The notes beneath the pieces were generated by a model. The model saw only the letters and a program-made list of their open reading frames with translations. It ran no database searches and was not told the DNA's origin. Shown here piece by piece: positions 6,901-36,374 of a stretch of DNA of 64,000 nt. A program made the translations under genes and the position numbers. Every line of letters starts with the position of its first letter. Position 1 is the stretch's first letter. Location: positions 277,698,001 to 277,762,000 of the forward strand of contig OZ024743.1 of NCBI GenBank assembly GCA_964016885.1. The letters run 5' to 3'. Origin of the DNA: Eledone cirrhosa (lineage: Eukaryota).

Positions 6901-7062
6901 GTCCCTCGGAAGTCTCCCCCCTATTGGGGAATTTTTCTTTGTTATTTTATTTCATCCGCTGTTTTTTTTACACGCAGAAATGCCCATTTGTACCGTCCTG
7001 TATTGTCCTGTACTGTCCTTAATGTCTACTTTATGTAAACCCTTGTGGTTAATAAAGAAAAC
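6901..7062 (+). mobile_element. Tx1-like family B 3'UTR fragment
   Basis: Near-identical to 21780-21958 and 32060-32240; ends AATAAAGAAAAC(ATT)n and is preceded by (GTT)n(CTT)n. Confidence 0.9.
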
Positions 7063-7297
7063 ATTATTATTATTATTATTATTATTGACGAAAGTGGATG
7101 TACGTTTTTTGAAGCTCCGTGAGTAAGCAATTTTTTGAGGATTAATTGTAGAGAATTGTTTATTTTTTGTACCGCTGAAGCATTATAAGACATTAATTTG
7201 TATCCTGTGAAGGAATAACTCATAATATTTGGGCCTTTTGGCCCAAATATTTGAACTTTATTTTGAAAAAAAATAATAATTTTTTTCTCAAAAAAAC

Positions 7298-9208
7298 ATG
7301 GCGGAGCCACGCCCCCTAGAGGCGGGTCTGCTGTCGTGCAACGGCGACTTGAGCGTTGAGAGGAGAGGTGAGGCGAGGAGCGCCACCAGCACGAATGTGA
7401 GCAGCGACAGTGCCAGCACCAACGGGCCGAGCGGCGCGGAAGGTGGTAACAGCGACAACACCAACACCAACAAGCCGAACAGCGCAGAAGGTGGTAATAG
7501 CGAGAGCACCAACAAAACGAACAGCACAGAGAGTAATAGTAGCGACAGCAGCAGCACCAACAAGGCCAACAGCACAGAAGGTAACCACGACACAGGGGAG
7601 AACAACAACAGCAATAGCAGCAGCAACACCAACAAGAACAACAACAGTGACAACACCAACAAGAACACTTTCGCTGCTGTGGCAGCGGCTAAAAGGAGAC
7701 CATGCTACAGCATCGACTTAACCAACAGAGAGGAAAAGTTGGCCCAGGCCTGGAAAATCATAAATCAAGAGCAGACCTGGGCAAACTTAACTGTCCCGGC
7801 AGAAGCCATTGAGGCAGTGGAAAAAAGAACGGTGCATTTCAGATGCATCTCAGTAGAGACAAAGAGGGCAGCGATAATCGCCCAAGCTGACATAGAAGCC
7901 GCACTGAAATACATCAGAGAGGACACAGACTTCATAGAGAGGGGCAGGCAATACGGCACCGTTTCGGTGCTGTTCAAGTCTGAAGCCCTCGCTGTGAAGC
8001 ATTCAATGACCCCTTGCAAAACCAGCAAGGTCATAATGTACCCCTCCCACATGGGAAAACGAATAGCACGTGTGCGCATTCCCAGGATTCCACCAGGACT
8101 TGATATGTGGTGGCTCCTGGGTTGCGTAATCGTGGAAGGAACGGATACAGTCCCGGTAGAGGCAACGAGAACTGCCAGGGACGACTGGTCCGGGGTTGAT
8201 CTGGAGATACTGCTCCAAATCAGACCCGAAAACGTAAAAACAATCCCGGACCACATCCGCCTCCAAAACGGGAGGGTGTTGCATATAATGACTGAGGGCA
8301 AAAGGCCGCATTGTTTCCTTTGTGGGGAAACGACACACTTGCGAGCCTTCTGCCCTCAACTGCCGAAAAGCGCAAGGGGTCGAAAGATTCCACTGCTGGC
8401 GACGCCGGGACAAGGACCACCAGCAACACCGTCAACAATGGAACCACCAAAATTGCACACCCAGGGGGGAAACGAGGAAAGCTCTCCCATTCCCCCTCCC
8501 CCCCAAAATACACACACGAACAAGAACATAAACACTCACTCAGACACAAACACGCTCACAGCCACAGACCCCTCATCCTCCAGCAGTGAAGATGAGGGAA
8601 AACCAAAGTCCCCCAAAATACAAAAAACAAAACACAAAAAAAAAAGAAATCCACAAAGCACAAACACCCCCACAAAAAAAAATACACACACCACCCACAC
8701 AAACATTTTCCCCACAGCATCACCAACACAACCACCAAAATCCCCCAAACGCAAACAAGCTAAACAGACACAAGAACAAATAGACACACAAACATCAGAA
8801 ACTACAGACACCCCACCCACAACAAACGCAGACACAATAGAAACAACACTAACAAAGCTATCACCACCACAATCACACGAACAAATAAAACCCGAGCAAC
8901 AAAACATTAAAAACTTCGTGCTTGCCAGAAGGGCCAACAAGGAATTGATGGCCCATGTAGCACGAAGCACAAACATCGAAAAAGACGGGGAAACATTTGA
9001 AGCGAGCACATTTCGCGTACCAGATAATTTGCTTCTGATGCGAATGTCGCTCGCTTCATACAAAGAAATTCGAAAGAGCTTTCCTCGGGATGTGGGAACC
9101 CCGAACGTAAAACCCACGTCAAGACTATTAAAGGGGTTCCCAAAAGAAACCCCACAAACCATGGAGGTCGAACCACCCGACCTTCACAAGACCCCGGAAG
9201 GTAAGTAA
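7298..9208 (+). CDS. Tx1-A ORF1, gag-like nucleic-acid-binding protein (636 aa)
   Basis: CCHC knuckle CFLCGETTHLRAFC; N/S-rich repetitive N-terminus; P/T/K-rich linker; lies upstream of the APE-RT ORF. Confidence 0.9.
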   Translation: MAEPRPLEAGLLSCNGDLSVERRGEARSATSTNVSSDSASTNGPSGAEGGNSDNTNTNKPNSAEGGNSESTNKTNSTESNSSDSSSTNKANSTEGNHDTGENNNSNSSSNTNKNNNSDNTNKNTFAAVAAAKRRPCYSIDLTNREEKLAQAWKIINQEQTWANLTVPAEAIEAVEKRTVHFRCISVETKRAAIIAQADIEAALKYIREDTDFIERGRQYGTVSVLFKSEALAVKHSMTPCKTSKVIMYPSHMGKRIARVRIPRIPPGLDMWWLLGCVIVEGTDTVPVEATRTARDDWSGVDLEILLQIRPENVKTIPDHIRLQNGRVLHIMTEGKRPHCFLCGETTHLRAFCPQLPKSARGRKIPLLATPGQGPPATPSTMEPPKLHTQGGNEESSPIPPPPQNTHTNKNINTHSDTNTLTATDPSSSSSEDEGKPKSPKIQKTKHKKKRNPQSTNTPTKKNTHTTHTNIFPTASPTQPPKSPKRKQAKQTQEQIDTQTSETTDTPPTTNADTIETTLTKLSPPQSHEQIKPEQQNIKNFVLARRANKELMAHVARSTNIEKDGETFEASTFRVPDNLLLMRMSLASYKEIRKSFPRDVGTPNVKPTSRLLKGFPKETPQTMEVEPPDLHKTPEGK

Positions 9209-9237
9209 ACCTTTCCTCTCCCATTCATCCTGCCAGC

Positions 9238-12200
9238 ATGGCCATAAGAGTAGGAAGTTTAAATGTTCGTGGCCTGGGGTCGCCCTGGAAGCAAGGTCAC
9301 TTGCTCAACGACCTCAGGTCACTAGGAATGGATGTAATTGCCATCAGCGAGACCAGAATTTCCGACACACGCGCACTGGCGCCGATTTTCGACGATTATC
9401 AGATCTTTGCATCTGTTAGTCGGCCGGGAATGGGAGGTGGAGTGGCTGTGCTGTTTAGGAAATGTCTGGATCTCGAGGTAAGGTCAATCTTCCGGGATCC
9501 TGACGGAAAGTTGGTGGTCCTGGACGTGAGCAATAGCGAAGGTGGTGCCTTTAGACTGGTGGCCGTCTACGCCCCTACTGGGGCCGGTCGGCCGGACTTC
9601 TTTAGGCGCCTGGAAAACTTTCTGCTTACGTCTCGCCCTTTACTGTTAATAGGGGATTGGAATGGCATCTTAGAAGCACGCTGGGATTGTGTGGGAGTAT
9701 CTGATAGGAGCGGGGGGTGCAAAAGCCTCAAGTACCTGATCAGCCAGTTTCAACTGTCTGACAGGTACCGACTAGATTTCCCTAATGCGCCAGTATGGAC
9801 CTGGACCAATCGCATAGGGTCATCTAGATCGTACATAGATAGGATTTTCATTAGGAAAAGAGATAGAAATAGTGTAGGATGTCCACATTTTAAAACGGTT
9901 GCCTATTCAGATCACAAGCTTGTGATCTGTATGGTCGACCTAGATAAGACACGTAGGTTAGGACCTAGCTACTGGAAGCTAAACATGTCGTTTCCGGCAC
10001 GTAAAGCTTACAGGGACCGGGTCAACAACTTAGTTAAGCAAAAGTTGACAGGGGGGGTTGTCAACAACAGGTGGTGGGGGGCACTCAAAAGAGAGATTAG
10101 AGCAACCTCGATAGGATTTAGCAAAGAAGTAGCAATAGAGAAAAATAGAAAGGAGGAGGGGCTGATAGCTAAGTTAGACGAGGCTATTTGTAGTGGCATT
10201 GCAACAGACGTGCTAGCGGCGAGAATGGCACTAGACCATTTCTTCAATGCGAAACACGAAGGTTGCATTGTCAGAGCTAAGGCGCGTGCTCTGAGGAACG
10301 AGGGAACCAAAGCTGCCCGATGGGCTCGCTTTGCAGAGACGCAGCGTGGAAATAAAACCACAATTCGGTCTTTGACGGATCGAGATGGACACGAACTGAG
10401 CGATTCCAAGCAGATGTGTGAGGCCTTTCGCCAGCACTTTGCTCGATTGTTCGGGAGGATGGGTGAGTCGGAGACGGCGGCGGACTTCAGTCCCTACCTC
10501 GACGGCTTGCCACGCCTCTCGACGGCCGACGCTGAGCGCTGCGAAGAGCCGATAACATCAGCCGAAATTCAGGACGCCCTTGTCGGCTGCTCGAGTCGCA
10601 AGTCACCCGGTTTGGATGGTCTGCCCTACGAGCTTTACGTAAATATGCCAGACTTGTTCTCCGATCTCCTCGAAGCGCTCTACTGCAACTGGCAGCAGAA
10701 CGGGAGCATTCCCAGTTCTGTGAGCCGTGGCGTAGTGACGCTGATAAGGAAAGACGAGAACAAGAGGGACACACTAGATAATTTCAGGCCCATAACCCTG
10801 CTCAACACAGAGTTTAAGATTTTGGCCAAGGTGTTAGCGAAAAGGTTGGCGCTTGTCGTCAAAGATTTGGTTGGGGAGGCGCAAACTTGCGCAATCCCGA
10901 CCAGGTCCATACACGACAACCTCCACCTCATGCGATACATCATAGAGAGGGTTGGGTGCAAACCTGGCTTCGGTGGGGCTCTGATCAATTTAGATCAATC
11001 GAAAGCATTCGATAGGGTCGACCATTGGTACTTGGAGGCTGTCCTCGAGGCGGCTGGCTTCGGCCCCGTCTTCAGAAGCTGGATCGCTGCAATGTACAGC
11101 GGCATCCGCTCGGTGGTCAAAGTTAATGGCCACCTCTCGGAACCGTTTCAGATCTCTCGATCGGTCCGTCAAGGGTGCCCTCTCTCCTCACTTCTGTACG
11201 TATTGACTCTTGAGCCTCTACTGCGGAAGCTGGAGTTGTTGCAGGGCATCCCGCTCGAACCGGGACGTAGAAAGGCTGCGTCCGCTTATGCGGACGACAT
11301 CACCGTGATGGTGTCGGACACCTCGGAAATCGAGGTGATCCGCACCCATTTGGAGGAATATGAAAGGTTGACGGGAGCAAAACTTAACCCGGAAAAGTCG
11401 GTGGGCTTGCAGCTCGGCACCTGGAGAGGCAAGTCCATGCCGTCCAACAGCGTCGTTGGGCGCTGGACAGACGGACCGGTAAAGTTGCTCGGGGTTTGGT
11501 TCGGACCAGACCTCCAGGTGGATAAGAATTGGGACGAGGTGACGAGCAGGATAGCCAACCTCACCCAGAAATGGGCTGAGAGAAAGCTATCACTGAAAGG
11601 GCGGGCGGAGGTGGCGAACGCGTACATCGCGTCCGTCATCTACTACCGCCTGACCGTCGTGCCTTGCCCCCGTCCACGCCTCGCCAATTTGGAACGGCTC
11701 CTTTTCAAATTTTTGTGGAGGGGACGGGTCCCGTTGGTGAGGCGGTCCATCTGCTGCCAGCACCCTCTTCGTGGAGGGCTGGGCATGCCGTGGCTAATGA
11801 TGCGCAGACATGCGCTGAGGCTGCGACATCTCCAGATATTTTGCCTAAACGGTGAACAGGTGTGGTCGCCGTTTGTTAGACGGGCCTTTCCGCAGCTCAT
11901 CTCTTTGACTGAGCTGCAGTCCTGGGTCAAGAAGAGACCGAGACTGGGCGACTGGCATCTGGAATGTTGCCAGGCGCTCACTGCACTCTGCAAGGTGGGC
12001 AATGCGGTCAGTGGAACTTCCACTCAAGATTTCTATAGAGGATTAGTGGAGGGCAAGTGCGATGACGTACTAGGAGAGGCTCTGGGCGTCAACGAAGTAG
12101 AACTGACCAGTATGTTCCGGAGGACTTTCGAGCCGGGGACGATGGATAACTTCCAGAAATCCCTCGCTTGGCAGTGTTACCGGGGGGCGCTGCCGGTTCG

Positions 12201-12657
12201 GGATAAACTCTACAGGCACGGAAGTGCTGTCAGACGAACCTGCCCGAGATGCGCGCAGAGCGACGAAACCGTTCTGCACGCACTCGTCCAGTGTCCGTGC
12301 ATTGCTGACTTGTGGGGTTATGTCGAACAGCTATTGTCGCGTGTAGAACGGATCCGGCTATCGTCCGAGTCCATAGTGAAGATTGACCCGCCGCCTTCTT
12401 TTGGTCAGGAAGGGCAGGCAATTTTCCTCTGCCTGGTGGCAGTAGCGAAAGAGGTTGCATGGTGGACCAGGTTGAAAGGACTGAAGACAGACACTTTTCT
12501 CTTCGGCCAATCCCTCATCAACTTCTTCAAGTTTCACTTGGAAAGGAAGGTGAGGGTGGAGAGAGAAGTGCTGCCCCCCAGTACATTTACTGAAAGGTGG
12601 GTGAATGTGGCGAGAATGGCCCGCGTGAGTGGGCCTACTCTGATCATGCGCCTGTAG
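9238..12657 (+). CDS. Tx1-A ORF2: APE endonuclease + reverse transcriptase + C-terminal CCHC (1139 aa)
   Basis: APE motifs SLNVRGL, ISET, GDWN, SYIDRI and SDH; RT motifs KSPGLDG, FRPITLLN, DQSKAFD, VRQGCPLS and AYADD; C-terminal CPRC...ETVLHALVQC. Confidence 0.96.
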   Translation: MAIRVGSLNVRGLGSPWKQGHLLNDLRSLGMDVIAISETRISDTRALAPIFDDYQIFASVSRPGMGGGVAVLFRKCLDLEVRSIFRDPDGKLVVLDVSNSEGGAFRLVAVYAPTGAGRPDFFRRLENFLLTSRPLLLIGDWNGILEARWDCVGVSDRSGGCKSLKYLISQFQLSDRYRLDFPNAPVWTWTNRIGSSRSYIDRIFIRKRDRNSVGCPHFKTVAYSDHKLVICMVDLDKTRRLGPSYWKLNMSFPARKAYRDRVNNLVKQKLTGGVVNNRWWGALKREIRATSIGFSKEVAIEKNRKEEGLIAKLDEAICSGIATDVLAARMALDHFFNAKHEGCIVRAKARALRNEGTKAARWARFAETQRGNKTTIRSLTDRDGHELSDSKQMCEAFRQHFARLFGRMGESETAADFSPYLDGLPRLSTADAERCEEPITSAEIQDALVGCSSRKSPGLDGLPYELYVNMPDLFSDLLEALYCNWQQNGSIPSSVSRGVVTLIRKDENKRDTLDNFRPITLLNTEFKILAKVLAKRLALVVKDLVGEAQTCAIPTRSIHDNLHLMRYIIERVGCKPGFGGALINLDQSKAFDRVDHWYLEAVLEAAGFGPVFRSWIAAMYSGIRSVVKVNGHLSEPFQISRSVRQGCPLSSLLYVLTLEPLLRKLELLQGIPLEPGRRKAASAYADDITVMVSDTSEIEVIRTHLEEYERLTGAKLNPEKSVGLQLGTWRGKSMPSNSVVGRWTDGPVKLLGVWFGPDLQVDKNWDEVTSRIANLTQKWAERKLSLKGRAEVANAYIASVIYYRLTVVPCPRPRLANLERLLFKFLWRGRVPLVRRSICCQHPLRGGLGMPWLMMRRHALRLRHLQIFCLNGEQVWSPFVRRAFPQLISLTELQSWVKKRPRLGDWHLECCQALTALCKVGNAVSGTSTQDFYRGLVEGKCDDVLGEALGVNEVELTSMFRRTFEPGTMDNFQKSLAWQCYRGALPVRDKLYRHGSAVRRTCPRCAQSDETVLHALVQCPCIADLWGYVEQLLSRVERIRLSSESIVKIDPPPSFGQEGQAIFLCLVAVAKEVAWWTRLKGLKTDTFLFGQSLINFFKFHLERKVRVEREVLPPSTFTERWVNVARMARVSGPTLIMRL

Positions 12658-12936
12658 GCTGGTGAATTCGAGAAGGAGAGGGGTGCCCTTCCCGGGTGCC
12701 CTAGGAGCGTCGGGTGACTCAGGACTGGTGGGGTGCTTGAGTCAACCCTGGGTGGTGATCCCTCTTATTGGGGAACTTTCATTGTTGTATTTTTATTGTT
12801 ATTTTGTTTTTGTTTTTTTGTTATTTATACTTACTCGATCTCTATGTAAACCCCCACTGTCCCTGTCTATTGTGTTGTCCCCTATATGTCGGCCCTTGTG
12901 GCCAATAAATGAAATCATTATTATTATTATTATTAT

Positions 12937-13118
12937 GGTGGATTGGCAGTATTGGTAGAGGGTCGGACGCCATGCTTTCCAGCATAGTTACGTCCCTTTA
13001 TGATCTGAGTTCAAAACCCGCCGAGGTTAACTTTGCCTTTCATCCTTACGGGGGTCGATAAAATAAAGTACCAGTAATGCACTGGGTAATTGCTGGCCTT
13101 GTGCCTAAAGTAGAAACA
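12937..13118 (+). mobile_element. tRNA-derived SINE with (ATT)n tail, internally deleted relative to the copy at 1-218
   Basis: TGGCAGTATTGG A box, GAGTTCAAAACCC B box, same body as 1-218, tail GGCCTTGTGCCTAAAGTAGAAACA(ATT)n. Confidence 0.88.
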
Positions 13119-13163
<45 letters not shown>

Positions 13164-13164
13164 G

Positions 13165-15898
13165 TTCCTTGAATCTCAGTCATTGATGTTAGTTAACTGG
13201 AAAGTCCGTTGGAATGAACATCAAGCCACTACCTGCAGCCTCAGATATTCAGGACGTATCGGAGGGTTCTTGCTGTTCCCAGCAAGCATGCCTTTTGAAG
13301 CGTTCCAAAAAGCGTGAAGGGGCCGATTTTCTTTAACCATCCCTGGAAACTTTTGGAGATAGTCCCCAGTGCGCCTATGACAATCGGGATCACTTTGACT
13401 TCATGGCAGTTCCAAATCCTTTTTAACTCCCACTTTAAGTCCTGGTATCGGTTAATTTTCTCCCTCTCCTTCTCTTGCACTCTCGTGTCGAATGGGCAGG
13501 CCACATCCACAATCAGACACGATCTTTTTTCTTTGTCCACAACCACCAGGTCAGGTCTATTGTGTTCCAGTTTCTTGTCCGTCTGCATCCTAAAATCCCA
13601 CAGCACCTTCACCTGATTGTTCTCCATCACCGCCTCTGGCTTATGCTCATACCATTTCTCAGAATGTGGTAAATTGTTTACTTTGCACAGGTGCCAGTGG
13701 ATCACCCTTCCCATCACATCATGTCTCCAGCTCTTATAGTGGGTCTGGGCTAGGTGTTTACACTCGGATACAATGTGAGCCACAGTCTCCTCTCTCTCTC
13801 CACAGATCCTGCACAGTGGGCTAGCCTCCTCCTTGTAAATATGGTGTTTCAACCACTTCGTTTTGAGGGCCTGCTCCTGCGCAGCCATTAACATTCCTTC
13901 TGTAGCCTTTTTAAGGTCTCCTCTTCTCAACCAGTTCCATGTCTGTGGATCTCTAAATTCAGTTTTCTCCAAGAAGGTACTATGAAGGGATTTTTCCTGA
14001 AGGCTGCTCTTTCTCCTTGATGTTATTTCCTCCTTGGACATCCCCTGGCCTATTGTCCCCTCCTTCAGTACAGTTCTGAGCGTTGGCTCCTTACTATCAG
14101 TCACGTATTTGTGTAGGTTGTTTTTCTCCATCTGAACACAGTCCTCTATGCTGATAAGACCTCTTCCACCCTCAGATCTCCTTAGGTAGAGTCTATCAAC
14201 ATCACTCCTCTTGTGGAACATATTGTAGATAGTCAATAGCTTCCTAGTCTTCCTATCCATTTCTTTTTGTTCAGCAACATTCCATCTCAGAATTCCCGCA
14301 CTGTACCTAATAATAGACACAGCTCGGGAATTTACTGCGCTTATGTCATTTCTGCTGTTCAGATGTGACTTCAATACGCTCCTTACTCTCCGAATGTATT
14401 CAGTTCTTAACAATTCCTTCATTTTTTTGTTCTTTATGCCATCAGCCTCCAGAACGCCCAAATACTTGTATCCTTCCTCAGAGTCAATTTCCTTTATCAT
14501 CTCACCTGTTGGTATCTGGATTCCGTTACTTCTGCTCAACCTACCCCTCCTCATCACAATGACTCCACACTTACTAATACCAAACTGCATACATATATCA
14601 CTGCTGAAAATACGGACAGTGTCAACAAGTACATCCAACTCCTTCTCACTCTTCCCGAAGAGCTTAAGATCGTCCATGAAGAGGAGGTGATTGATGGTAA
14701 GCCCTCCCTTTCCCAACCCGTATCCTGCTCTCACTTTTCGCAGTACACTGGTCAGGGGCATCAGGGCAAGGACAAACAACAGAGGGGACAGGCTATCTCC
14801 CTGGAAGATACCTCTCTTGATCTTCACGCTTCCCAAGGATTCTCCAGTTGATGTCAACTCTGTTTCCCAGGACCTCATACTCTTGCCCAGCAACTGTCTG
14901 ATGTTATCTGCCACCTTCAAGATCTCCAGGCTTTTGGTGATCCAAGAATGAGGCACCATGTCAAATGCCTTTCTGTAGTCTATCCATCCCATGGCAAGAT
15001 CAGTGTGTCTCCTCCTGCAATTCCCCATTACCATCTTATCAATAAGTAACTGGTCCATTGAACCACGTGACTTCTTTCGGCATCCTTTCTGTTCGTCCGG
15101 TAACAAGTTGTTTGTGTGGAGGTGATGGTAGATTCCCTCAGACACAATGCTCGTCAACAGTTTCTACATTACGGACAGACATGTGATAGGTCTATAGTTG
15201 GTAACATCATTACCCTTGATTCGGTCTTTCATTATCAGAACTGTGGTACCTTTTGTCAACCACTCTGGTACCTCACCTGACATCAAGCAGTCATTGAACA
15301 TGGTTGTCAGTTTCGGGTGGAGGGATGTTATATTTTTAATCCAATACCCCTGCAAACCATCTGGGCCTGGTGATTTCCAGTTGGTTAGTTTTTTGGCCTG
15401 CCCCTTAAGAGTTTCAACTGTGATACTCAAATGCGTTTGTTGGTGTGCCTGCTCACCGATCTCCCTCTGTACTGTCTCAATCCACCCTGCCTGGTCATTA
15501 TGTCTAACATCCTGCTCCCATATTCCTCTCCAGAATGTTTTAGTTTGTTCCGCCTCAGGGATCAAGTCGTTGCCTCTTTCTTTCCCCTCAAGCTGTCCAA
15601 ACAGCATCTTCTGGTTGTTGTCGAATATGCGGTTCTGTTTATACTGACTGACTCTGTTCTCGTATCGCCTGATTTTTGCACTCTTTGCTACAATGCGTTG
15701 CTTCAATTCCTCTATGATAATATTTAGCTTTTTCCTCCTAGTTTTGTACTTTATTTCCAGTCTATTTTTAGTGCCTATGTTTTTTAGTGTCCCATTCAGT
15801 AGTGACTCAAGCTTTCCAATGTCATTTCTCATTTCCCTGATTTGACCACTCAGTCGTTTCTTCCACCAAGGCTCTGCTCTTTCTTGTCTGTTGTTTCC

Positions 15899-15899
<1 letters not shown>
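13165..15899 (-). mobile_element. 5'-truncated R4/Dong-like RLE non-LTR retrotransposon (copy 1)
   Basis: Minus-strand RT plus RLE domain; the 3' end runs into (AAT)n on its sense strand and the 5' end is truncated at (ATT)n near 15900. Confidence 0.92.
13241..15899 (-). pseudogene. Dong-like RT-RLE ORF, truncated, with an in-frame TAG at 15164-15166
   Basis: KSPGPDG, YRPITCL, DYRKAFD, GIFQGDSLSP and LFMDD; CRIC..ETVAHIVSEC, RHD, RPDLVV..DVACPFD and EKINRY. The TAG corresponds to TGG (MWK) in copy 2. Confidence 0.9.
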
Positions 15900-15930
<31 letters not shown>

Positions 15931-16144
15931 GAATGCCATGGTTGACGGAGGCTCGGCTCTGTAAGGTATAGTAATTTTTAACCGTTAAAACAATTGTAAA
16001 TTGTTTAAAACTTGAACCAAATTGTTGATAAAGACACCCTCCTCCTCGTGAGAGGGGTCTTTCTGTCCGTTATTTGGCCCTTCGGGGCTAAATAACCAGT
16101 TATTGGGGTTTTGAACCCAATATTCATTTTAAACAAAAAACAAC

Positions 16145-18241: not shown

Positions 18242-18277
18242 GTGGTCTTTCCCATCTTTCTCCACTCTATTTTAAAC

Positions 18278-22010: not shown

Positions 22011-22342
22011 TTCCTTGAATCTCAGTCATTGATGTTGGTTAACTGGAAAGTCCGTTGGATTGAATATCAAGCCACTACCTGCAGCCTCAGATATTCAGGA
22101 CGTATCGGAGGGTTCTTGCTGTTCCAAGCAAGCATGCCTTTTGAAGCGTTCCAAAAAGCGTGAATGTGCCGATTTTCTTTAACCATCCCTGGAAACTTTT
22201 GGAGATAGTCCCCAGTGCGCCTATGACAATCGGGATCAGTTTGACTTCATTGCAGTTCCAAATCCTTTTCCCCTCCCACTTTAGGTCCTGGTATCGGTTA
22301 ATTTTCTCCCTCTCCTTCTCTTGCACTCTCGTGTCGAACGGG
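22011..22342 (-). mobile_element. Short 3' fragment of a Dong-like element
   Basis: PFDTRVQEKEREKINRY...YVLNI* plus the 3'UTR, flanked by (ATT)n. Confidence 0.92.
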
Positions 22343-22373
22343 ATTATTATTATTATTATTATTGTTGTTGTTA

Positions 22374-26185: not shown

Positions 26186-26425
26186 TTATTATTATTATTA
26201 TTATTATTATTGAATGCCATGGTTCACGGAGGCTCGGCTCTGTAAGGTATAGTAATTTTTAACCGTTAAAACAATTGTAAATTGTTTAAAACTTGAACCA
26301 AATTGTTGATAAAGACACCCTCCTCCTCGTGAGAGGGGTCTTTCTGTCCGTTATTTGGCCCTTCGGGGTTAAATAACCAGTTATTGGGGTTTTGTACCCA
26401 ATATTCATTTTAAACAAAAAACAAC

Positions 26426-28522
26426 ATGGCTACGAAAAAGAAATTTCATACGTCACTCCCACTCATTCCGTCTTCTTCTTCCTCAATCATCACTACAGCA
26501 GAGAGAAGATTGTCTCTCTCCCTCCCTTCTTTAAATGTGTCTCTCTCCCTCCCTTCTCTTTCGCAAGTGACGAAAGAAAAGAAAAGTCTCGTGCAAAGCG
26601 TGCAAGGTTTCTCCACGACGACGACGACAGCGACGAAACAGGTGTGCGGGAAATACGAAAACCCAGTTCATTCGTCTGACGTCAGGAATAATAGCAGTAG
26701 CAGCCGTAATAACAACAGCAACAGTGACAATGAAAACAACAGTAGCAGCCGCAACAGCATCACCAGCAGCATAAACAACAACAGCATTAGCAGCAGCAAC
26801 ACCAACAACAACCACAGCAACAGCGGCGGAGGCAGTAGTCGTAGTACCTGCAGCAACAACAAAAGTACCAGCAGCTCTGACGAGAACAACAACAGCAGAG
26901 AAAAACCAATCTCATTTGCAGGTATTGCGAAAAACTTGGAAACAATCCTCATAACAAATGAGGAATTAGAGGAAGCGAAGAAGATGGTGACAAAGAATGG
27001 ACACCGAGCAATCTGCAAGGCAGCGAAAAATTTTTTCGAAACCCAAGAGCACTGTACGGTCACGTACCGTACAGTAAGTACAAAATCCCGTAGGGTGGAA
27101 AGAGCCACAGAGGCCCAAATACAAAAAGCCTTGGGGTCTGTGTGGCAGCGGAAAACGCACATCACCCGAGGCAAAAAATATGCCACCGTAGACGTACTTT
27201 TTGCCACACCCCAGGAGGCAAAGGCCCAATCAGTAGTGACCCTAAGGAGCGAGGAAATGGTGTTGGTGCCCTCCTACTGTGGGCAAAAAATTGTGAGGGT
27301 GAAACTGACCCACGTCCCCCCCGGAATGACCCCTTCTTGGCTGGCCGCGTCTGTCCTCGTCGGAATCGAGGACAAAACAACTGTACTGCAAGTACAAAAA
27401 AAAGTAAGAGAAGATTGGGTCGGCTCCTCCATTGAGATGCTAATCCAAACCAACCAGGAGTGCATCGAAGCTATCCCGGATGTGATAGACTTCGATAACG
27501 GCACTCAACTGCCCATAAGTGTTGAGGGCAAACGCCCGAAATGCTTTCGCTGTGGATCGAAGACTCACCTCAGGGCCTTCTGCAACGAGAAGACCCTGAG
27601 AAAGGAGAAAACCCCCCTCCTTCCGAATCCGGCTCCACGCCTACCAGCAACAGGACAAGCGGCAACCAGGAACGATAGCCCCGTGGGACCCATACCCACT
27701 CCACGGAAATCAAAAACAGCAGCAGCAGTGGAAATACTAACAACAACAACAGCAATACCAAATGCAGCTGCAACAGAGACTCCAGTGCAAACATCACCAA
27801 CAACAACAAGTGAAAGAGTGGAGCTGGTACCCCTCCCCGACCTCACAGAATCAGACATGGAGTGTGAGGTGGGAGAGAGATGGCAAAAGGTCGTAAGAAG
27901 GCACAAACGCAGAAGCAGCGCATCGTCGCCTTTGAAAAGGGAGGAAAGAAATGAGAAAAGGGTAAAGTCTACTGCAAAGAGACCCACAGCAGCAACAACA
28001 CCAACACCATCACCACCCACACTAGCGCCACCATCACCACCGGCGACAACCCCACCGCCAACAACACCTTCAACACCACCACCACAAGCACCAACATCGC
28101 AAACACAACAACAAAACACACACACCCAGCAACAACGACAAGAAAATAGCAGAACCACACCCCACCCCCAGAAAAACAAATGCACGGCAATAAATACACA
28201 CAACAAGAAACTAATGACTTACATAATTGAACACACAGACATTTCACAACAGGACTACATAATACCAGCACCAATCAAAACGCCAACTAACATAAGACTG
28301 CTAAAAATAGCACAGAAACAATACACAAATATTAAAACGAAATTCCCCAACGCAGTTGGTGATTTCAGGGACCTAGGAGGAACCATCAATCGAAGAGTAT
28401 ACTCAGACATTCTCTTAGAAGAGCCGACGACCAGCCGAAGGGACGATTCAACGGTCCCTTCACCAGACGATCAAGTGAAAAGGGATGTAAAAACCATCCC
28501 TCCTCTACCAAAAGTACGGTAA
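26426..28522 (+). CDS. Tx1-B2 ORF1, gag-like (698 aa)
   Basis: CCHC knuckle CFRCGSKTHLRAFC; N/S-rich and P/T-rich low-complexity regions; the central domain resembles Tx1-A ORF1 (RG..Y.TV.VLF, R.DW.G, EGKRP.CF). Confidence 0.9.
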   Translation: MATKKKFHTSLPLIPSSSSSIITTAERRLSLSLPSLNVSLSLPSLSQVTKEKKSLVQSVQGFSTTTTTATKQVCGKYENPVHSSDVRNNSSSSRNNNSNSDNENNSSSRNSITSSINNNSISSSNTNNNHSNSGGGSSRSTCSNNKSTSSSDENNNSREKPISFAGIAKNLETILITNEELEEAKKMVTKNGHRAICKAAKNFFETQEHCTVTYRTVSTKSRRVERATEAQIQKALGSVWQRKTHITRGKKYATVDVLFATPQEAKAQSVVTLRSEEMVLVPSYCGQKIVRVKLTHVPPGMTPSWLAASVLVGIEDKTTVLQVQKKVREDWVGSSIEMLIQTNQECIEAIPDVIDFDNGTQLPISVEGKRPKCFRCGSKTHLRAFCNEKTLRKEKTPLLPNPAPRLPATGQAATRNDSPVGPIPTPRKSKTAAAVEILTTTTAIPNAAATETPVQTSPTTTSERVELVPLPDLTESDMECEVGERWQKVVRRHKRRSSASSPLKREERNEKRVKSTAKRPTAATTPTPSPPTLAPPSPPATTPPPTTPSTPPPQAPTSQTQQQNTHTQQQRQENSRTTPHPQKNKCTAINTHNKKLMTYIIEHTDISQQDYIIPAPIKTPTNIRLLKIAQKQYTNIKTKFPNAVGDFRDLGGTINRRVYSDILLEEPTTSRRDDSTVPSPDDQVKRDVKTIPPLPKVR

Positions 28523-28557
28523 GTGGTCTTTCCCATCTTTTCCACTCTATTTTAAAC

Positions 28558-31500
28558 ATGACCTCACTCAGAATAGGCAGCATAAATGCGCGTGGCTTGG
28601 GGTCGTCATGGAAGCAGGGTCACCTGCTCAACGACCTCAGGTCACTAAACATAGATGTAGTGGCCATCAGCGAGACCAGAATCTCCGAAGCACGGGCCTT
28701 CGCACCGATCTTCGGCGGCTACGATGTGTACGCATCTCCCAGCCGTCCTGGATCGGGTGGAGGAGTTGCTGTGCTTTTTCGGAGAGATTTGGATTTCGCC
28801 ATACGGGCCATCTTCCTGGACCCAGAGGGTAAGCTGGTGGTGCTGGACGTGACCAGCGGAGACGGGCAAGCTTTCAGGCTAGTGGCCGTCTATGCCCCGA
28901 TAGGAGCAGGGCGGCCTGATTTCTTCCGGCGTCTGGAGACCTTTCTTGGAACGTCCCGCTCTTTAGTGTTAGTGGGCGACTGGAACGGGATCTTAGATGC
29001 ACGCTGGGACTGTGTGGGATTAGCGGATAGGGGTGGAGGGTGCAAGAGCCTCACCAACCTGCTCAGGCGTTTTGAACTGTCTGACAGGTACCGATTGGAT
29101 TTCCCGAATGTGCCAATGTGGACTTGGACAAACCGCATAGGGTCATCCAGATCATATCTAGATAGAGTATTTTGTAGGGAAATAGATAGGTCTAGCATAG
29201 GCTGTCCACAATTCAAGATAGTCAGCTACACGGACCACAAATTCGTGACCTGTGTGCTTGACTTAGATAGGCTTCATAGACGAAGACCCGGCTACTGGAA
29301 GCTAAACGCGTCCTTACCAGCGCGCAAGGCCTACAGAGATCGGATTAGCGAACTAGTTAAGCGGGCGTTGACGGGGGCCATTGTCAACAATAAGTGGTGG
29401 TTTGCTCTGAAAAGAGCGATTAGAATAGAATCGATTAGGTTTAGTAAGGCTTTAGCAATAGAGAAAAATAGAGCAGAGGGAGAACTAGTTAGAAAATTAG
29501 ACGAGGCGCTTAGCAAAGGCATTGCGACCGACGTGCTTGCGGCGAAATTGGCCCTTGACCAATTCTTCAATGCAAAGCACGAAGGCTGCGTTGTCAGAGC
29601 TAGGGTGCGTGCTCTCAGACACGAGGGGACGAAAGCCGTTCAATGGGCCCGAGTGGCGGAGGCGCGTCGTGGCAACAAAGCCACGATCCGGTCTTTGGTG
29701 GACCACGACGGGCGCATGCTACTCGATCCCGGGCAAATGTGTGAAGCTTTTCAGCGACACTTCGCTCAGCTGTTCGGGGGCAGCGGTGGGCCGGGTCGAG
29801 GGATGGACTTTAGTGTCTACCTCGACGGACTGCCGCGACTCTCGGCCACTGAGGCGGAGTGTTGCGAAAAGCCGATAACAGCCGCTGAAGTAAGGGAGGC
29901 AATGACTGGCTGCACAAGGGGTAAATCGCCTGGTTTGGATGGTCTGCCCTATGAACTTTACGTACAGATGCCAGACTTGTTCGGAGGCCTCTTGGCGGAC
30001 GTCTACTACAACTGGCAACAGAACGGGAGAATTCCCAGTTCTGTGAGCCGAGGAGCGGTGGCACTGCTGAGAAAGGATCCGAACAAGGGGGATAACATAG
30101 ACAATTTCCGGCCCATAACTCTGCTAAACACAGAGTTCAAGATTTTGGCCAAGGTGCTAGCAAAGAGGTTGGCGCTTGTCGTTGGTGGTCTGGTGGGAGA
30201 GGCGCAGACATGCGCCATTCCCGACAGATCCATCCACGACAACCTCCACCTCATGCGATACATCATAGAGAGGGTAGCTAAGGAACCTGGCACGGGTGGG
30301 TCCTTGATCAATTTAGATCAGTCGAAAGCTTTCGATAGGGTCGACCATCGTTACCTAGCGGCAGTCCTGAGGGCGGCTGGCTTTGGGCCCATCTTCAGAG
30401 GCTGGATCGCTGCCATGCACAGCGACATCTGCTCTGTGGTGAGAGTGAACGGTCACCTGTCGGAACCGTTCAACATCATGCGCTCGGTCCGCCAAGGATG
30501 TCCCCTCTCGTCCCTCTTGTACGTATTGACTCTCGAGCCATTACTGCACAAACTGGAGACGTTGAGGGGAGTCCCGCGCGAACTAGGATGCGGAAGATCC
30601 GTGTCAGCATATGCGGACGATGTCACCGTAGTGGTGTCGAACGCCAAACACATCGAGGCGATCGGCACTACACTAAGAGAATACGAAGCGGTGACAGGAG
30701 CAATGATCAACCAGGAAAAGTCAGTGGGCCTGCAGCTCGGCACCTGGAGAGGCAGGTCCATGCCGTCCAACAGCGTCGTCGGGCGCTGGACGGACGGACC
30801 GGTTAAATTGCTAGGGGTCTGGATCGGTCCGGACCTCCAGACGGACAAAAACTGGGACGAGGTGACGAGCAGGGTGGCTTCTCTCACCCAGAAATGGGCG
30901 GAGAGGAAGCTATCCCTGAAAGGTCGAGCGGAGGTGGCTAACGCGTACATCGTGTCTGTCATCTGCTACCGCCTAACCGTCGTACCTTGTCCTAAGCCTC
31001 GCCTGACTGCGCTGGAGCGTTTGCTCTTTCGCTTTTTGTGGAAGGGACGTGCTCCGATGGTCAGGCGGTCCATCTGTTGTCAACACCCGCTACGTGGAGG
31101 GCTGGGCATGCCGTGGCTGATGATGCGCAGGCACGCGCTCAGGCTACGACATCTCCACCTCTTCCTCGACGGTGATCAGGTGTGGTCGCCGTTTGCTAGA
31201 CGCGTTTTTCCCCAGCTCGTTTCCTTGACGGAGCTGCAGTCCTGGGTCAAGCGAAGACCGAGAGGGAGCGCCTGGAGACTGGAATGTCTTCAGGCGCTCA
31301 CAGCCCTCGACCAATCGGGCAATGTGATCGGTGGAAACTCCACCTCGGCGTTCTATAGAGGATTAGTGGAGGGGAAGAGCGACGACGTACTTGGGGAAAC
31401 TCTAGGCGTCGACGAAAATCAACTAGCCAATCTCTTCGGAAGAACTTTCGGGCCGGGGCCTATGGACAACTTCCAGAAATCTCTGGCCTGGCAGTGCTAC

Positions 31501-31977
31501 CGAGGAGCCTTGCCAGTTCGGGATAAACTCTACAGGCATGGAGGTGCCGTCAGCCGGGCATGTCCGAGATGCGCGCAGGGCGACGAAACCGTCCTGCACG
31601 CACTCGTCCAGTGTCCGAAAATTGCTGACTTGTGGGTTTATGTCGAACACCTGCTGTCGCGTTTAGGACGGATCCGGCTATCATCTGAGTCCATCGTGAG
31701 GATTGCCCCGCCCTCCTCCTTTAGCCGGGAAGGGCAGGCAGTTTTTATCTGCCTGGTGGCCATGGTGAAAGAGATAGTATGGTGGACACGTTTGAAAGGG
31801 CTGAAGACGAGCACTTACCTCTTCGGTGATGCTCTGATTGACTTTTTCAAATTTCATTTGAAAAGGGAAATCAGAGTAGAGAGGGAAGTGCTCTCTTCCC
31901 TGCATTTTGTTGAAAGATGGGTGAGAGAAGCAAGAATGGCCCGAGTGAATGGGCCTACTCTGAGTATATATCTGTAA
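28558..31977 (+). CDS. Tx1-B2 ORF2: APE + RT + CCHC (1139 aa)
   Basis: SINARGL, GDWN, SYLDRV and TDH; FRPITLLN, DQSKAFD, VRQGCPLS and AYADD; CPRC..ETVLHALVQC. Confidence 0.96.
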   Translation: MTSLRIGSINARGLGSSWKQGHLLNDLRSLNIDVVAISETRISEARAFAPIFGGYDVYASPSRPGSGGGVAVLFRRDLDFAIRAIFLDPEGKLVVLDVTSGDGQAFRLVAVYAPIGAGRPDFFRRLETFLGTSRSLVLVGDWNGILDARWDCVGLADRGGGCKSLTNLLRRFELSDRYRLDFPNVPMWTWTNRIGSSRSYLDRVFCREIDRSSIGCPQFKIVSYTDHKFVTCVLDLDRLHRRRPGYWKLNASLPARKAYRDRISELVKRALTGAIVNNKWWFALKRAIRIESIRFSKALAIEKNRAEGELVRKLDEALSKGIATDVLAAKLALDQFFNAKHEGCVVRARVRALRHEGTKAVQWARVAEARRGNKATIRSLVDHDGRMLLDPGQMCEAFQRHFAQLFGGSGGPGRGMDFSVYLDGLPRLSATEAECCEKPITAAEVREAMTGCTRGKSPGLDGLPYELYVQMPDLFGGLLADVYYNWQQNGRIPSSVSRGAVALLRKDPNKGDNIDNFRPITLLNTEFKILAKVLAKRLALVVGGLVGEAQTCAIPDRSIHDNLHLMRYIIERVAKEPGTGGSLINLDQSKAFDRVDHRYLAAVLRAAGFGPIFRGWIAAMHSDICSVVRVNGHLSEPFNIMRSVRQGCPLSSLLYVLTLEPLLHKLETLRGVPRELGCGRSVSAYADDVTVVVSNAKHIEAIGTTLREYEAVTGAMINQEKSVGLQLGTWRGRSMPSNSVVGRWTDGPVKLLGVWIGPDLQTDKNWDEVTSRVASLTQKWAERKLSLKGRAEVANAYIVSVICYRLTVVPCPKPRLTALERLLFRFLWKGRAPMVRRSICCQHPLRGGLGMPWLMMRRHALRLRHLHLFLDGDQVWSPFARRVFPQLVSLTELQSWVKRRPRGSAWRLECLQALTALDQSGNVIGGNSTSAFYRGLVEGKSDDVLGETLGVDENQLANLFGRTFGPGPMDNFQKSLAWQCYRGALPVRDKLYRHGGAVSRACPRCAQGDETVLHALVQCPKIADLWVYVEHLLSRLGRIRLSSESIVRIAPPSSFSREGQAVFICLVAMVKEIVWWTRLKGLKTSTYLFGDALIDFFKFHLKREIRVEREVLSSLHFVERWVREARMARVNGPTLSIYL

Positions 31978-32239
31978 ATTAAAGGTGGAAAACTGGGAGA
32001 GGGCACTTGCCTTGGTGATCAGGGTCATTGTGGCTTTTTACTGGGCTTTCTCCACAAATGTCCCTCCGAAGTCTGCCCCCTATTGGGGAATTTTTCATTG
32101 TTATTTTTTGTTACATCCTCTGTTTTTGTTTCAACCTCTGTTTTTTTACACGCAGAAATGCCCATTTGTACCGTCCTGTATTGTCCTGTACTGTCCTTAA
32201 TGTCTACTTTATGTGAACCCTTGTGGTTAATAAAGAAAA

Positions 32240-32291
<52 letters not shown>

Positions 32292-35200
32292 GAATGCTAT
32301 GGTTGACGGAGGCTCGGCTCTGTAAGGTATTGTAAATTTGGACCGCTATAACAATTGTAAATTGTTGAAAACTTTAACCAACTTGTAGACAAAAACACCC
32401 TCCTCCTCGTGAGAGGGATCTTTCTGCCCGTTATTTGGCCCTTCGGGGTTAAATAACTGCTTATTGGGGTTTTGTGCCCAATATTTATTTTAAACAAAAA
32501 AACAACGTCCCCCCCGGGATGGCCCCTTCTTGGCTGGCCGCGTCTGTCCTCGTCGGAATCGAGGACAAAACAACTGTACTGCAAGTACAGAAAAAAGTAA
32601 GAGAAGATTGGGTCGGCACCTCCATTGAGATGTTAATCCAAACCAACCAGGAGTGCATCGAAGCTATCCTGGATGTGATAGACTTCGATAACGGCACTCA
32701 ACTGCCCATAAGTGTTGAGGGCAAACGCCCGAAATGCTTTCGCTGTGGATCGAAGACTCACCTCAGGGCCTTCTGCAAAGAGAAGACCCTGAGAAAGGAG
32801 AAAACCCCCCTCCTTCCGAAACCGGCTCCACGGCTACCAGCAACAGGACAAGCGGCAACCAGGAACGATAGGTCCGTGGCACCCATACCCATGCCACGGA
32901 AATCAAAAACAGCAGCAGCAGTGGAAGTATTAACAACAACAGCAATACCAAATGCAGCTGCAACAGAGACTCCAGTGCAAACATCACCAACAACAACAAG
33001 TGAAAGAGTGGAGCTGGTACCCCTCCCCGACCTCACAGAATCAGACATGGAGTGTGAGGTGGGAGAGGGATGGCAAAAGGTCGTAAGAAGGCAGAAACGC
33101 AGAAGCAGCGCATCGTCGCCTTTGAAAAGGGAGGAAAGAAATGAAAAAAGGGTAAAGTCTACTGCAAAGAGACTCACAGCAGCAACACCACCACCACCAT
33201 CACCACCGGCGACAACTTTTCCTGGTTGATCATTGCTCATGTCACCGCTTCGTATTCTCTTAGTGTAGTGCCGATCGCCTCGATGTGTTTGGCGTTCGAC
33301 ACCACTACGGTGACATCGTCCGCATATGCTGACACGGATCTTCCGCATCCTAGTTCGCGCGGGACGCCCCTCAACGTCTCCAGTTTGTGCAGTAATGGCT
33401 CGAGAGTCAATACGTACAAGAGGGACGAGACGGGACATCCTTGGCGGCCCGAGCGCATGATGTTGAACGGTTCCGACAGGTGACCGTTCACTCTCACCAC
33501 AGAGCAGATGTCGCTGTGCATGTTGCCAGTTGCAGTAGACGTCCGCCAAGAGGCCTCCGAACAAGTCTGGCATCTGTACGTAAAGTTCATAGGGCAGACC
33601 ATCCAAACCAGGCGATTTACCCCTTGTGCAGCCAGTCATTGCCTCCCTTACTTCAGCGGCTGTTATCGGCTTTTCGCAACACTCCGCCTCAGTGGCCGAG
33701 AGTCGCGGCAGTCCGTCGAGGTAGACACTAAAGTCCATCCCTCGACCCGGCCCACCGCTGCCCCCGAACAGCTGAGCGAAGTGTCGCTGAAAAGCTTCAC
33801 ACATTTGCCCGGGATCGAGTAGCATGCGCCCGTCGTGGTCCACCAAAGACCGGATCGTGGCTTTGTTGCCACGACGCGCCTCCGCCACTCGGGCCCATTG
33901 AACGGCTTTCGTCCCCTCGTGTCTGAGAGCACGCACCCTAGCTCTGACAACGCAGCCTTCGTGCTTTGCATTGAAGAATTGGTCAAGGGCCAATTTCGCC
34001 GCAAGCACGTCGGTCGCAATGCCTTTGCTAAGCGCCTCGTCTAATTTTCTAACAAATTTTCTAAGTAATTTTCTCCCTCTGCTCTATTTTTCTCTATTGC
34101 TAAAGCCTTACTAAACCTAATGGATTCTATTCTAATCGCTCTTTTCAGAGCAAACCACCAATTGTTGTTGAAGATGGCCCCCGTCAACACACAGACATTT
34201 CACACCACAGCTACATAATACCAGCACCAATCAAAACGCCAACTAACATAAGACTGCTAAAAATAGCACAGAAAAAATACACAAACATTAAAACGAAATT
34301 CCCCAACGCAGTTGGTGATTTCAGAGACCTAAGAGGGACTCTGAACCGGAGAGTATATTCGGACATACTCATAGAAGAGCCGACGACCAGCCGAAGGGAC
34401 GATTCAACGGTCTCCTCACCAGACGATCAAGTGAAAAGAGATGGAAAAACCATCCTTCCTCTACAAAAAGTACGGTAAATGGTCTTTCCCATCTTTCCAC
34501 TCTATTTTAAACATGACCTCACTCAGAATAGGCAGCATAAATGCGCGTGGCTTGGGGTCGTCATGGAAGCAGGGTCACCTGCTCAACGACCTCAGGTCAC
34601 TAAACATAGATGTAGTGGCCATCAGCGAGACTAGAATCTCCGAAGCACGGGCCTTCGCACCGATCTTCGGCGGCTACGATGTGTACGCATCTCCCAGCCG
34701 TCCTGGATCGGGGGGAGGAGTTGCTGTGCTTTTTCGGAGAGGTTTGGATCTCGCCATACGGGCCATATTCCTGGACCCAGAGGGTAAGTTGGTGGTGCTG
34801 GACGTGACCAGCGGAGATGGGCAAGCTTTCAGGCTAGTGGCCGTCTGTACCCCGACAGGAGCAGGGCGGCCTGATTTCTTCCGGCGTCTGGAGACCTTTC
34901 TTGGAACGTCCCGCTCTTTAGTGTTAGTGGGCGACTGGAACGCGATCTTAGATGCACGCTGGGACTGTGTGGGATTAGCGGATAGGGGTGGAGGGCGCAA
35001 GAGCCTCACCAACCTGCTCAGGCGTTTTGAACTGTCTGACAGGTACCGATTGGATTTCCCGAATGTGCCAATGTGGAGTTGGACAAATCGCATAGGGTCA
35101 TCCAGATCATATCTAGATAGAGTATTTTGTAGGGAAATAGCTAGGTCTAGCATAGGCTGTCCACAATTCAAGATAGTCAGCTACACGGACCACAAATTCG

Positions 35201-36374
35201 TGATCTGTGTGCTTGACTTAGATAGGCTTCATAGACGAGGACCCGGCTACTGGAAGCTAAACGCGTCATTACCAGCGCGCAAGGCCTACAGAGACCGGAT
35301 TAGCGAACTAATTAAGCGGGCGTTGACGGGGGCCATCGTCAACAACAAGTGGTGGTTTGCTCTGAAAAGAGCGATTAGAATAGAATCGATTAGGTTTAGT
35401 AAGGCTTTAGCAATAGAGAACATAGAGCAGATGGGGATCTAGTTAAAAAATTAGACGAGGCGCTTAGCAAAAGCATCGCGACCGACGTGCTTGCGGCGAA
35501 ATTGGCCCTTGACCAATTCTTCAATGCAAAGCACGAAGGCTGCGTTGTCAGAGCTAGCCAATCTCTGTCAGAACTAGCCAATCTGTTCGGAAGAACTTTC
35601 GGGCCGGGAACTATGGACAACTTCCAGAAATCTCTGGCCTGGCAGTACTACCGAGGAGCCTTGCCAGTTCGGGATAAACTCTACAGGCATGGCGGTGCCG
35701 TCAGCCGGGCATGTCCGAGATGCGCGCAGGGCGATGAAACCGTCCTGCACGCACTCGTCCAGTGTCCGAAAATTGCTGACTTGTGGGTTTATGTCGAACA
35801 CCTGCTGTCGCGTGTACGACGGATCCGGCTATCATCTGAGTCCATCGTGAGGATTTCCCCGCCCTCTTCCTTTAGCCGGGAAGGGCAGGCAGTTTTTATC
35901 TGTCTGGTGGCCATGGCGAAAGAGATAGTATGGTGGACACGTTTGAAAGGGCTGAAGACGAGCACTTACCTCTTCTGTGATGCCAAGATTGACTTTTTCA
36001 AATTTCATTTGAAAAGGAAAATCAGAGTAGAGAGGGAAGTGCTCTCTTCCCAGCATTTTGTTGAAAGATGGGTGAGAGAAGCAAGAATGGCCCGAGTGAA
36101 TGGGCCTACTCTGAGTACGTATATGTAAATTAAAGGTGGAAAACTGGGAGAGGGCACTTGCCTTGGTGGTCAGGGTCACTGTGGCCTTTTACTTTCTTCA
36201 CAAATGTCCCTCCGAAGTCTCCCCCCTATTGGGGAATTTGTCATTGTTATTTTTTTGTTACATCCTCTGTTTTTGTTTTTTACACGCAGAAATGCCCATT
36301 TGTACCGTCCTGTATTGTCCGGCACTGTCCTTAATGTCTACTTTATGTAAACCCTTGTGGTTAATAAAGAAATC
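32292..36374 (+). mobile_element. Rearranged Tx1-B copy 3 (deletions plus an internal inversion)
   Basis: The 5'UTR joins mid-ORF1 at ~32504. Inverted ORF2 pieces occupy ~33217-34188, followed by a forward ORF1 end and ORF2 start (34189-35555), then a jump to the ORF2 3' end and 3'UTR. Confidence 0.88.

Follow-up and report, generated by a model that had tools for sequence, protein, structure and literature searches.

The 64,000-nucleotide window of the Eledone cirrhosa genome analysed here (G000:C4:277698001-277762000, in an assembly of 3.0 Gb) carries at 6900-36374 an array of nine retroelements: elements of the apurinic/apyrimidinic endonuclease (APE) type, Tx1-like, and a short interspersed element (SINE) on the plus strand, and elements of the restriction-like endonuclease (RLE) type, Dong/R4-like, on the minus strand (Table 1). 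In such chains the APE-type elements occupy the ATT strand and the RLE-type elements the AAT strand of one microsatellite, and we consider it highly probable that the chains are built by repeated target-primed insertions, each leaving a new ATT tract. The window array is typical of the Eledone cirrhosa genome, not exceptional, and the arrays are a real, genome-wide variant of known site-specific retrotransposon systems. Tx-A, Tx-B, Dong1 and similar names are working labels.

A preliminary description of this window had proposed nine consecutive insertions, with every Tx and the SINE on one strand and every Dong on the other, and all nine were found in the claimed order and orientation, with no element nested inside another. 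The eight spacers comprise, in order, 24, 18, 48, 31, 54, 33, 21 and 51 bp of ATT. They are ATT-type tracts as had been stated, but their range is 18-54 rather than 20-55 bp, and GTT units adjoin the Dong 3' ends. At the left edge the first stub begins after (TTG)9(TTC)14, not after ATT. Beyond the array the window contains a single pure ATT/AAT tract of at least four units, at 48863, so the pattern of the array is not background.

The same target recurs throughout the genome. For the flank sets, loci were ranked by element similarity alone and each search contributed 30 of its 40 scored matches, each Tx set including the window copy. All 30 Tx-B and all 30 Tx-A 5' ends read ...ATT|G; neither the non-ATT flanks nor the random orientation that would have spoken against the preliminary description was seen in these sets. 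Dong 3' matches are followed by AAT-type repeats in 13/13 cases (two from one locus), and at least (AAT)3 lies within 25 nt of the 5' end in 51 of 56 distinct Dong cases. Whole-genome patterns, which count only copies preceded by an ATT or AAT repeat and not copies preceded by neither, yield about 2,600 Tx-B starts after (ATT)3 (2724 forward, doubled by overlap; 1268 reverse) versus 1 site after (AAT)3. For Dong they yield about 1,150 starts after (AAT)3 (1076 forward, inflated by overlap; 573 reverse) versus 4 after (ATT)3, all fold-back junctions in which (AAT)n is followed by a short inverted (ATT)m. These counts bear out the proposal of a shared (ATT)n/(AAT)n target used in opposite orientations. 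Across 209 distinct tracts, with the focal elements included in the counts, Tx lies on the ATT strand in 160/165 flanks and Dong on the opposite strand in 118/119; the six exceptions are three low-complexity matches, one 5'-inverted Dong and two genuine cases (L142 and L159). The polarity rule holds for at least eight Tx 5' types and three Dong body types, and 5'-truncated Dongs are also joined to (AAT)n (44 flanks).

The sole site with the AAT-strand pattern (L374, G000:C4:16752839) has two Tx-B 5' ends back to back across (AAT)4 AATT. At several loci (L235, L238, L241, L242, L222 and c57) Tx copies share a dispersed context of TG/TA repeats followed by GTT/ATT; an abundant host repeat is suggested as the supplier of seed tracts for Tx copies. 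For distant relatives, 80 metagenome loci (24-45% identity) had no ATT/AAT tract of at least five units, an uninformative result given that the loci are distant and often end at the element.

Young Tx copies retain pure ATT units on their 5' side, at least four in Tx-A (34/34) and at least five in Tx-B (44/45), and Tx-A tandems have 5-6 ATT units between copies. On the 3' side, 114 of 120 Tx junctions continue with ATTATT and none has a poly(A) or A-run, though AATAAA just precedes the end. In the few impure tracts, the duplication is at most 17 bp in several cases and at least 18 bp in others, from which we infer a Tx target-site duplication (TSD) probably near 15-18 bp. Dong1, the one family showing an inherited tail, carries the AAC-variant tail AATAACAATAAC in 30/57; its 5' junctions are untidy, with iterated leader pieces. 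The preliminary claim that the tail of each insertion regenerates the target is thus sustained for Dong1, but renewal of the Tx tract is likely to owe more to target-site duplication than to an added tail. Opposite first-strand nicks follow from standard target-primed reverse transcription (TPRT): the first nick of Tx would fall on the AAT strand and that of Dong on the ATT strand. The Tx RNA, extended by read-through beyond AATAAA for a few AUU units, would pair with the primer on the nicked AAT strand, and a target duplication of ~15-18 bp, plus the inherited AAT/AAC tail for Dong, would leave a reusable tract on both sides.

Chains of this kind are common, 87 of 127 element ends adjoining another Tx, Dong or SINE (Tx-B left 28/30, Tx-A left 18/30, Tx-B right 14/17, the end having not been found in 3 of 20, Tx-A right 10/20 and Dong 5' 17/30). 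Other arrays, about 28-32 kb long, lie at C1:439.09, C1:55.4 and C1:63.97 Mb. The contig depth of young Tx-A, ~1,800-2,400 versus 8-12 for unique flank, suggests a few hundred copies as a rough figure. The arrays are self-extending, as had been proposed, although they also grow by local duplication and by neighbour-templated insertion.

This last process is proposed from Tx copies at other loci that match their downstream neighbour without a difference in the 5' 0.5-1.7 kb but have a 3' part closest to copies elsewhere. The 16 adjacent same-family pairs fall into three groups: five with 2-5 differing sites, four with an identical 5' block in common and seven in which differences begin at once. 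Further Tx-B loci were picked by 6-kb spacing in the whole-genome pattern matches. In adjacent Tx-B pairs with at least 20 differences, the first difference lies beyond nt 500 in 6/16, versus 23/1,269 non-adjacent pairs (Fisher p 5e-7); the 16 pairs include the poorly delimited W_2/W_3, leave out three near-identical pairs and are not fully independent. Pairs fetched after the idea of a block had arisen show it in 3/11 (p 9e-4; again non-independent pairs). The middle copy at C1:57.1 Mb (c57_2) matches its downstream neighbour without a single difference along the first 1,298 nt, where the next nearest copy shows 13, and in its 3' part it is 6 differences away from a copy at another locus. This chimeric match pattern excludes unequal crossover with the upstream copy and would fit both a complementary DNA (cDNA) completed on the resident neighbour and a duplication followed by cDNA-driven 3' replacement. 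Each junction of this locus shows a duplicate of an impure 42-bp tract, and the element 3' end and the target meet in a TC microhomology, an added tail being absent. Within a 32-kb array of five Tx-B copies at C1:55.42-55.46 Mb (L400-L406), an 813-bp Dong2 stub occurs in duplicate between distinct Tx-B copies, the two versions showing 0 differences; the duplication looks like a TSD of ~850 bp. An unfinished Tx cDNA may anneal to a neighbouring resident copy and be completed on that copy, which would duplicate all that lies between the nick and the crossover point, once an 813-bp Dong stub. Neighbour-templated 5' ends are accordingly best described as a probable mechanistic addition, well supported by the sequences. 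Homology-assisted 5' joining is known for L1 and R2.

Several observations weigh against this account of the arrays. The Tx flanks at the two genuine exceptions are truly reversed; the TSD length can be read in a few impure tracts alone, and it is variable; and the ATT|G phase need not reflect a second nick, as homology at the 5' junction could also set it. Ten of the 16 adjacent Tx-B pairs are without a 5' block, and no pair within the window shows one. Finally, the 5/16 adjacent same-family pairs that differ at just 2-5 positions are better ascribed to local duplication or an error of assembly than to a new insertion.

These pairs, which lie elsewhere in the genome and have equal spacer lengths, are one reason to ask whether the array came mainly from local tandem duplication or unequal crossover of a Dong plus Tx unit, the recurrence of the Dong plus Tx-B order in the window being another. 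Such an origin is nevertheless very improbable: Tx-B1 and Tx-B2 differ by 71 substitutions, the nearest relatives of Tx-B1 are copies at three distant loci (16 substitutions), and the two long window Dongs have different 5' truncations and 96.3% identity, from which it follows that the window copies are separate insertions. The 3' parts of the block chimeras, moreover, match distant loci and not the upstream copy. Simple duplication of the Dong plus Tx unit is therefore refuted for the window, and local duplication is a contributor at other loci. Four Tx-B copies with 2-5 differences, every spacer being 17 ATT, lie at G000:C3:247.10-247.125 Mb (L291-L293), and three Tx-A copies with 3-5 differences at C11:37.116-37.133 Mb; both clusters reflect local amplification or assembly artefact. 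That near-identical tandems exist might also raise the suspicion that arrays and chimeras in general are assembly artefacts of young, near-identical repeats, but this is scarcely credible when the window neighbours carry distinct substitutions, truncations and spacers and the chimeras lie between copies differing at 26-246 sites.

Target choice itself could be explained otherwise. Perhaps insertion is not sequence-specific and ATT- or AAT-tailed elements simply pile up in AT-rich, low-recombination DNA; the genome is indeed rich in simple repeats, and the SINE behaves in this way, 24/30 copies being without (ATT)4 upstream. A tail cannot, however, yield ATT at the 5' junction of 60/60 Tx copies or a strand bias of ~2,600 to 1, and the 5'-truncated Dongs join (AAT)n too, all of which makes passive accumulation extremely unlikely. 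Alternatively, the specificity might come mainly from annealing of the RNA tail to nicks or breaks in the repeat, and not from the endonuclease, the polarity then mirroring the tail (AUU versus AAU). The Tx 3' junctions without poly(A), the TC microhomology at c57 and the ATTAT with which the SINE duplications begin would all agree with this. Yet annealing constrains the 3' junction alone, and the pure ATT units that Tx-A and Tx-B keep on their 5' side are not kept by the ATT-tailed SINE; we give this explanation a small chance.

The SINE had been taken as a further ATT-tract family, a view contradicted by the 6/30 copies with (ATT)4 upstream; it does not have the same target, as a Tx partner would. 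Flanking repeats of 9-26 bp, mostly starting with ATTAT, accompany 23/30 copies, and in a comparison of its last 60 nt with six Tx ends, made for the shared 3' tail expected of a LINE partner, the score was equalled in 9-199 of 1,000 shuffles. The SINE is an array passenger with a relaxed ATTAT preference, not ATT-tract specific, and it enters the array because that preference overlaps the tracts.

With respect to affiliation, the second open reading frame (ORF2) of Tx has the Pfam domains APE PF03372, reverse transcriptase (RT) PF00078 and zf-RVT PF13966, with the RT motif YADD in Tx-A and the catalytic-type motifs SLNVRG, SETR, YAP, GDWN, YIDR and SDH. Its best PDB match is human L1 ORF2p (E 3e-57), far above R2. 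An N-terminal APE, an RT, a C-terminal CCHC and no RNase H correspond to the anatomy of the L1 group (L1/Tx1). A CX2CX4HX4C zinc knuckle in ORF1 is a criterion of the Tx1 clade; it is present, although unscored by Pfam, as CFLCGETTHLRAFC in Tx-A and CFRCGSKTHLRAFC in Tx-B. Sequence-specific insertion, another trait of that clade, is evident in both from the 5'-junction flanks. In a 34-row RT tree Tx-A and Tx-B form an octopod clade (100/100) within a 15-row clade; the placement of the octopod clade relative to a 'TX1'-named protein and to L1-like proteins of 1.26-1.29 thousand amino acids (kaa) is unsupported (68/91), and the single protein named 'Transposon TX1' in the comparison fell outside the octopod group. 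Among named proteins, the one nearest to the Tx RT comes from Argonauta hians (70%). The APE lineage thus fits L1/Tx1-group anatomy, and the Tx1-clade label, which comes from domain anatomy and not from a reference-family tree, is provisional. The Tx ORF1 stop lies within a conserved, 5'-splice-site-like GGTAAGT motif (window 9200-9240 and 28515-28560; Tx-B2, D and F copies), and a pyrimidine-rich linker of ~30-40 nt separates this motif from the ORF2 ATG. No copies spliced at GTAAGT were found; in the fetched loci the motif always runs on into unspliced leader.

Dong has a single ORF with an RT followed by CCHC, RHD and a PD-(D/E)xK endonuclease, the anatomy of R4/Dong; C941/C944/H953/C958, R970-H971-D972, P1027-D1028, D1043 and K1059 are kept in at least 80% of 64 aligned rows. 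A structure model from this 64-row alignment (predicted local distance difference test, pLDDT, 87.7) has R2 proteins as its best folds, with a template-modelling (TM) score of ~0.6. Two other traits of R4/Dong also appear here, the (TAA)n target and the lack of an N-terminal zinc finger, a C2H2-like motif being present in 0/64 aligned proteins. Residues 47-118 of the model form a confident helical bundle, with no Pfam Myb match at E<=5; the R4/Dong clade is described as having a divergent N-terminal Myb/SANT-like domain (PMC7998251). None of the 120 homologs listed is named Dong or R4. The Dong label would agree with every anatomical and target test run, on the basis of domain anatomy and not of a reference-family tree. 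Dong1 and Dong2 proteins are ~40% identical. All three window copies are 5'-truncated, complete copies elsewhere measuring 4.55-4.85 kb. Some Dong1 copies have a ~310-bp tandem duplication in the leader (L165:4823-5900), which matches the lengths of ~4.55 versus 4.85 kb.

Dong1, Dong2 and Dong4 have in common a leader of ~180 bp whose layout is like that of the Tx 5' untranslated region (UTR); the first 180 nt of Dong1 and Dong2 are 84% identical. The Dong leader and the Tx-D/E-type leader share the 14-mer TCGCTCCCGTAAGT, a length reached in 0/3,000 shuffles against 10 Tx leaders. An ATG with A at -3 occurs at +201 to +235 in 11/11 leaders examined; it starts ORF1 in Tx and opens just a Thr/Pro-rich frame of 20-86 codons in Dong1. 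Homology over the whole leader was rejected: 260-nt Dong/Tx alignments are weak (z 0-6 over many pairs), the 14-mer alone being clearly non-random. These alignments weigh against capture, as does the result that no Tx family carrying a Dong leader on the ATT strand was found among 100 of 101 listed matches. Capture and convergence on a host signal (a promoter or a 5' splice site) have about equal probability. A more ambitious joint reading would have an octopod-specific APE lineage converging on the ancient (TAA)n target of Dong from the opposite strand, to give a genome-wide, self-assembling system in which every insertion supplies a fresh target, incomplete Tx cDNAs regain their full length on a neighbour, at times with duplication of passengers, the 5' promoter module of Dong was captured from the Tx lineage, and tail-to-tail neighbours feed each other antisense RNA; as a whole we regard it as rather doubtful.

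Many of the parts of this system have precedents. The target of Dong in most insects, molluscs and cnidarians is (TAA)n (PMC7998251). Like Dong of Bombyx, DongAg and DongBg, the elements described here have a single ORF with RT and RLE, no N-terminal zinc finger and that same target; unlike them, they share it with an APE lineage and have a leader laid out like the Tx 5' UTR. Microsatellite-specific Tx1 families include Kibi on (TC)n, Koshi on (TTC)n and crocodilian elements on (TTCC)n/(TTTC)n (PMC4494074, PMC3812793). These families resemble our Tx in their two ORFs, APE-RT-zinc finger ORF2, microsatellite target and fixed orientation, but (ATT)n, by comparison of descriptions, is not listed for Tx1 in the available text of these two sources. 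In Bombyx mori, SART1 and TRAS1 insert in opposite directions into one simple repeat and need few repeat units (PMC7265360). Both of those families are APE elements confined to telomeric TTAGG, whereas here an APE and an RLE lineage meet at an interstitial microsatellite with thousands of dispersed sites. R1 tandems arise through site preference and target duplication as head-to-tail dimers, expandable by unequal exchange (PMC5932611); such double insertions, as far as that account goes, are same-family dimers, whereas here at least 10 Tx and Dong 5' types are mixed in two orientations. Templated or chimeric L1 insertions involve a step resembling synthesis-dependent strand annealing (SDSA), with templates typically <250 bp (bioRxiv 10.1101/2024.08.27.596794). 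There too the growing cDNA pairs with nearby homologous DNA and duplicates DNA, but here 0.5-1.7 kb of a same-family neighbour is involved, the product is full length and about a third of diverged adjacent Tx-B pairs are affected. Dong on (TAA)n in molluscs, Tx1 on TC, TTC and TTCC/TTTC, the opposite directions of SART/TRAS and double-insertion tandems are thus already known, on the available text of these sources; neither an (ATT)n-targeting Tx1-like family nor a mixed APE/RLE array appeared in the literature searched, with Repbase outside the search.

How two endonuclease folds with no relation to each other read the same 3-bp repeat from opposite strands can be tested on these arrays, which are natural and present in high copy number; they also provide a new simple target of an APE element on which target choice can be dissected. 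Through the chimeras a step of TPRT that has seldom been observed, 5' joining with second-strand synthesis, can be counted in genomes, and they point to a means of escaping 5' truncation. If most of them belong to full-length copies, the ~2,600 Tx-B 5' ends alone would amount to roughly 15 Mb. Recently active L1-Tx1 and Dong-R4 content has been described in octopus (PMC13282606, where the word 'target' is absent from the main text as available), and arrays may make up much of it.

Table 1. Elements, spacers and target remnants of the window array (positions in the 64,000-nt window)
Feature	Position	Strand	Remarks
Left remnant, host compound microsatellite: imperfect (TTA)n, (TTG)9, (TTC)14	6784..6899	.	
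Tx-B-type 3' stub, 163 bp; 5' junction at (TTC)n	6900..7062	+	98% to 3' end of Tx-B2-family copy
(ATT)8 spacer	7063..7086	+	
Tx-A, full length, both ORFs open	7087..12916	+	ORF1 636 aa, ORF2 1139 aa; AATAAA just 5' of 3' end
(ATT)6 spacer	12917..12934	+	
SINE, 184 bp; A-box/B-box-like motifs	12935..13118	+	Motifs by eye; tRNA origin inferred
(ATT)15 GTT spacer	13119..13166	+	
Dong/R4-like, 5'-truncated, 2.7 kb	13167..15899	-	RT plus CCHC, RHD and PD..D restriction-like endonuclease motifs
T(ATT)10 spacer	15900..15930	+	
Tx-B1, full length	15931..21958	+	In-frame stops: ORF1 just before 16316, ORF2 at 21290-21292
(ATT)15 GTT GTT ATT spacer; variant units are Dong tail	21959..22012	+	
Dong 3' stub, 330 bp	22013..22342	-	98.2% to adjacent Dong
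(ATT)7 (GTT)3 ATT spacer	22343..22375	+	
Dong/R4-like, lacking ~1 kb of 5' leader	22376..26190	-	Whole 1.14-kaa ORF region, one in-frame stop
(ATT)7 spacer	26191..26211	+	
Tx-B2, full length, both ORFs open	26212..32240	+	698 aa and 1139 aa from first Met
(ATT)17 spacer	32241..32291	+	
Tx-B3, internally deleted and rearranged	32292..36374	+	Element nt 1-214, 1101-1806, inverted 4510-4203 and 3809-3156, then 2019-3392, 5210-end
Right target remnant: (ATT)8 AAT (ATT)4 (ATC)n	36375..36445	+	

The internal inversion of Tx-B3 occupies 33215-34188. Rfam gave no ribozyme, tRNA, SINE or other RNA family in the array, a single sub-threshold CrcZ match falling on a spacer, and a ribozyme or other known RNA at the element 5' ends was rejected on this result. 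Outside the array, an older Tx-B-related element (49922-55155, plus strand) follows a (GTT)n..ATT ATC ATT ATT tract. Part of its ORF1 has given way to an internal fragment of Dong, 808 bp long and antisense (50458-51265), with a short duplication at one junction, possibly through a template switch onto antisense Dong RNA. A 679-bp direct repeat of 98% identity (37184-37862 and 40254-40931) surrounds two frames of 240-282 aa without a Pfam match, and at 43354-45367 there is an inverted-repeat RT remnant with mirror ORFs on both strands and weak RVT_1 matches.

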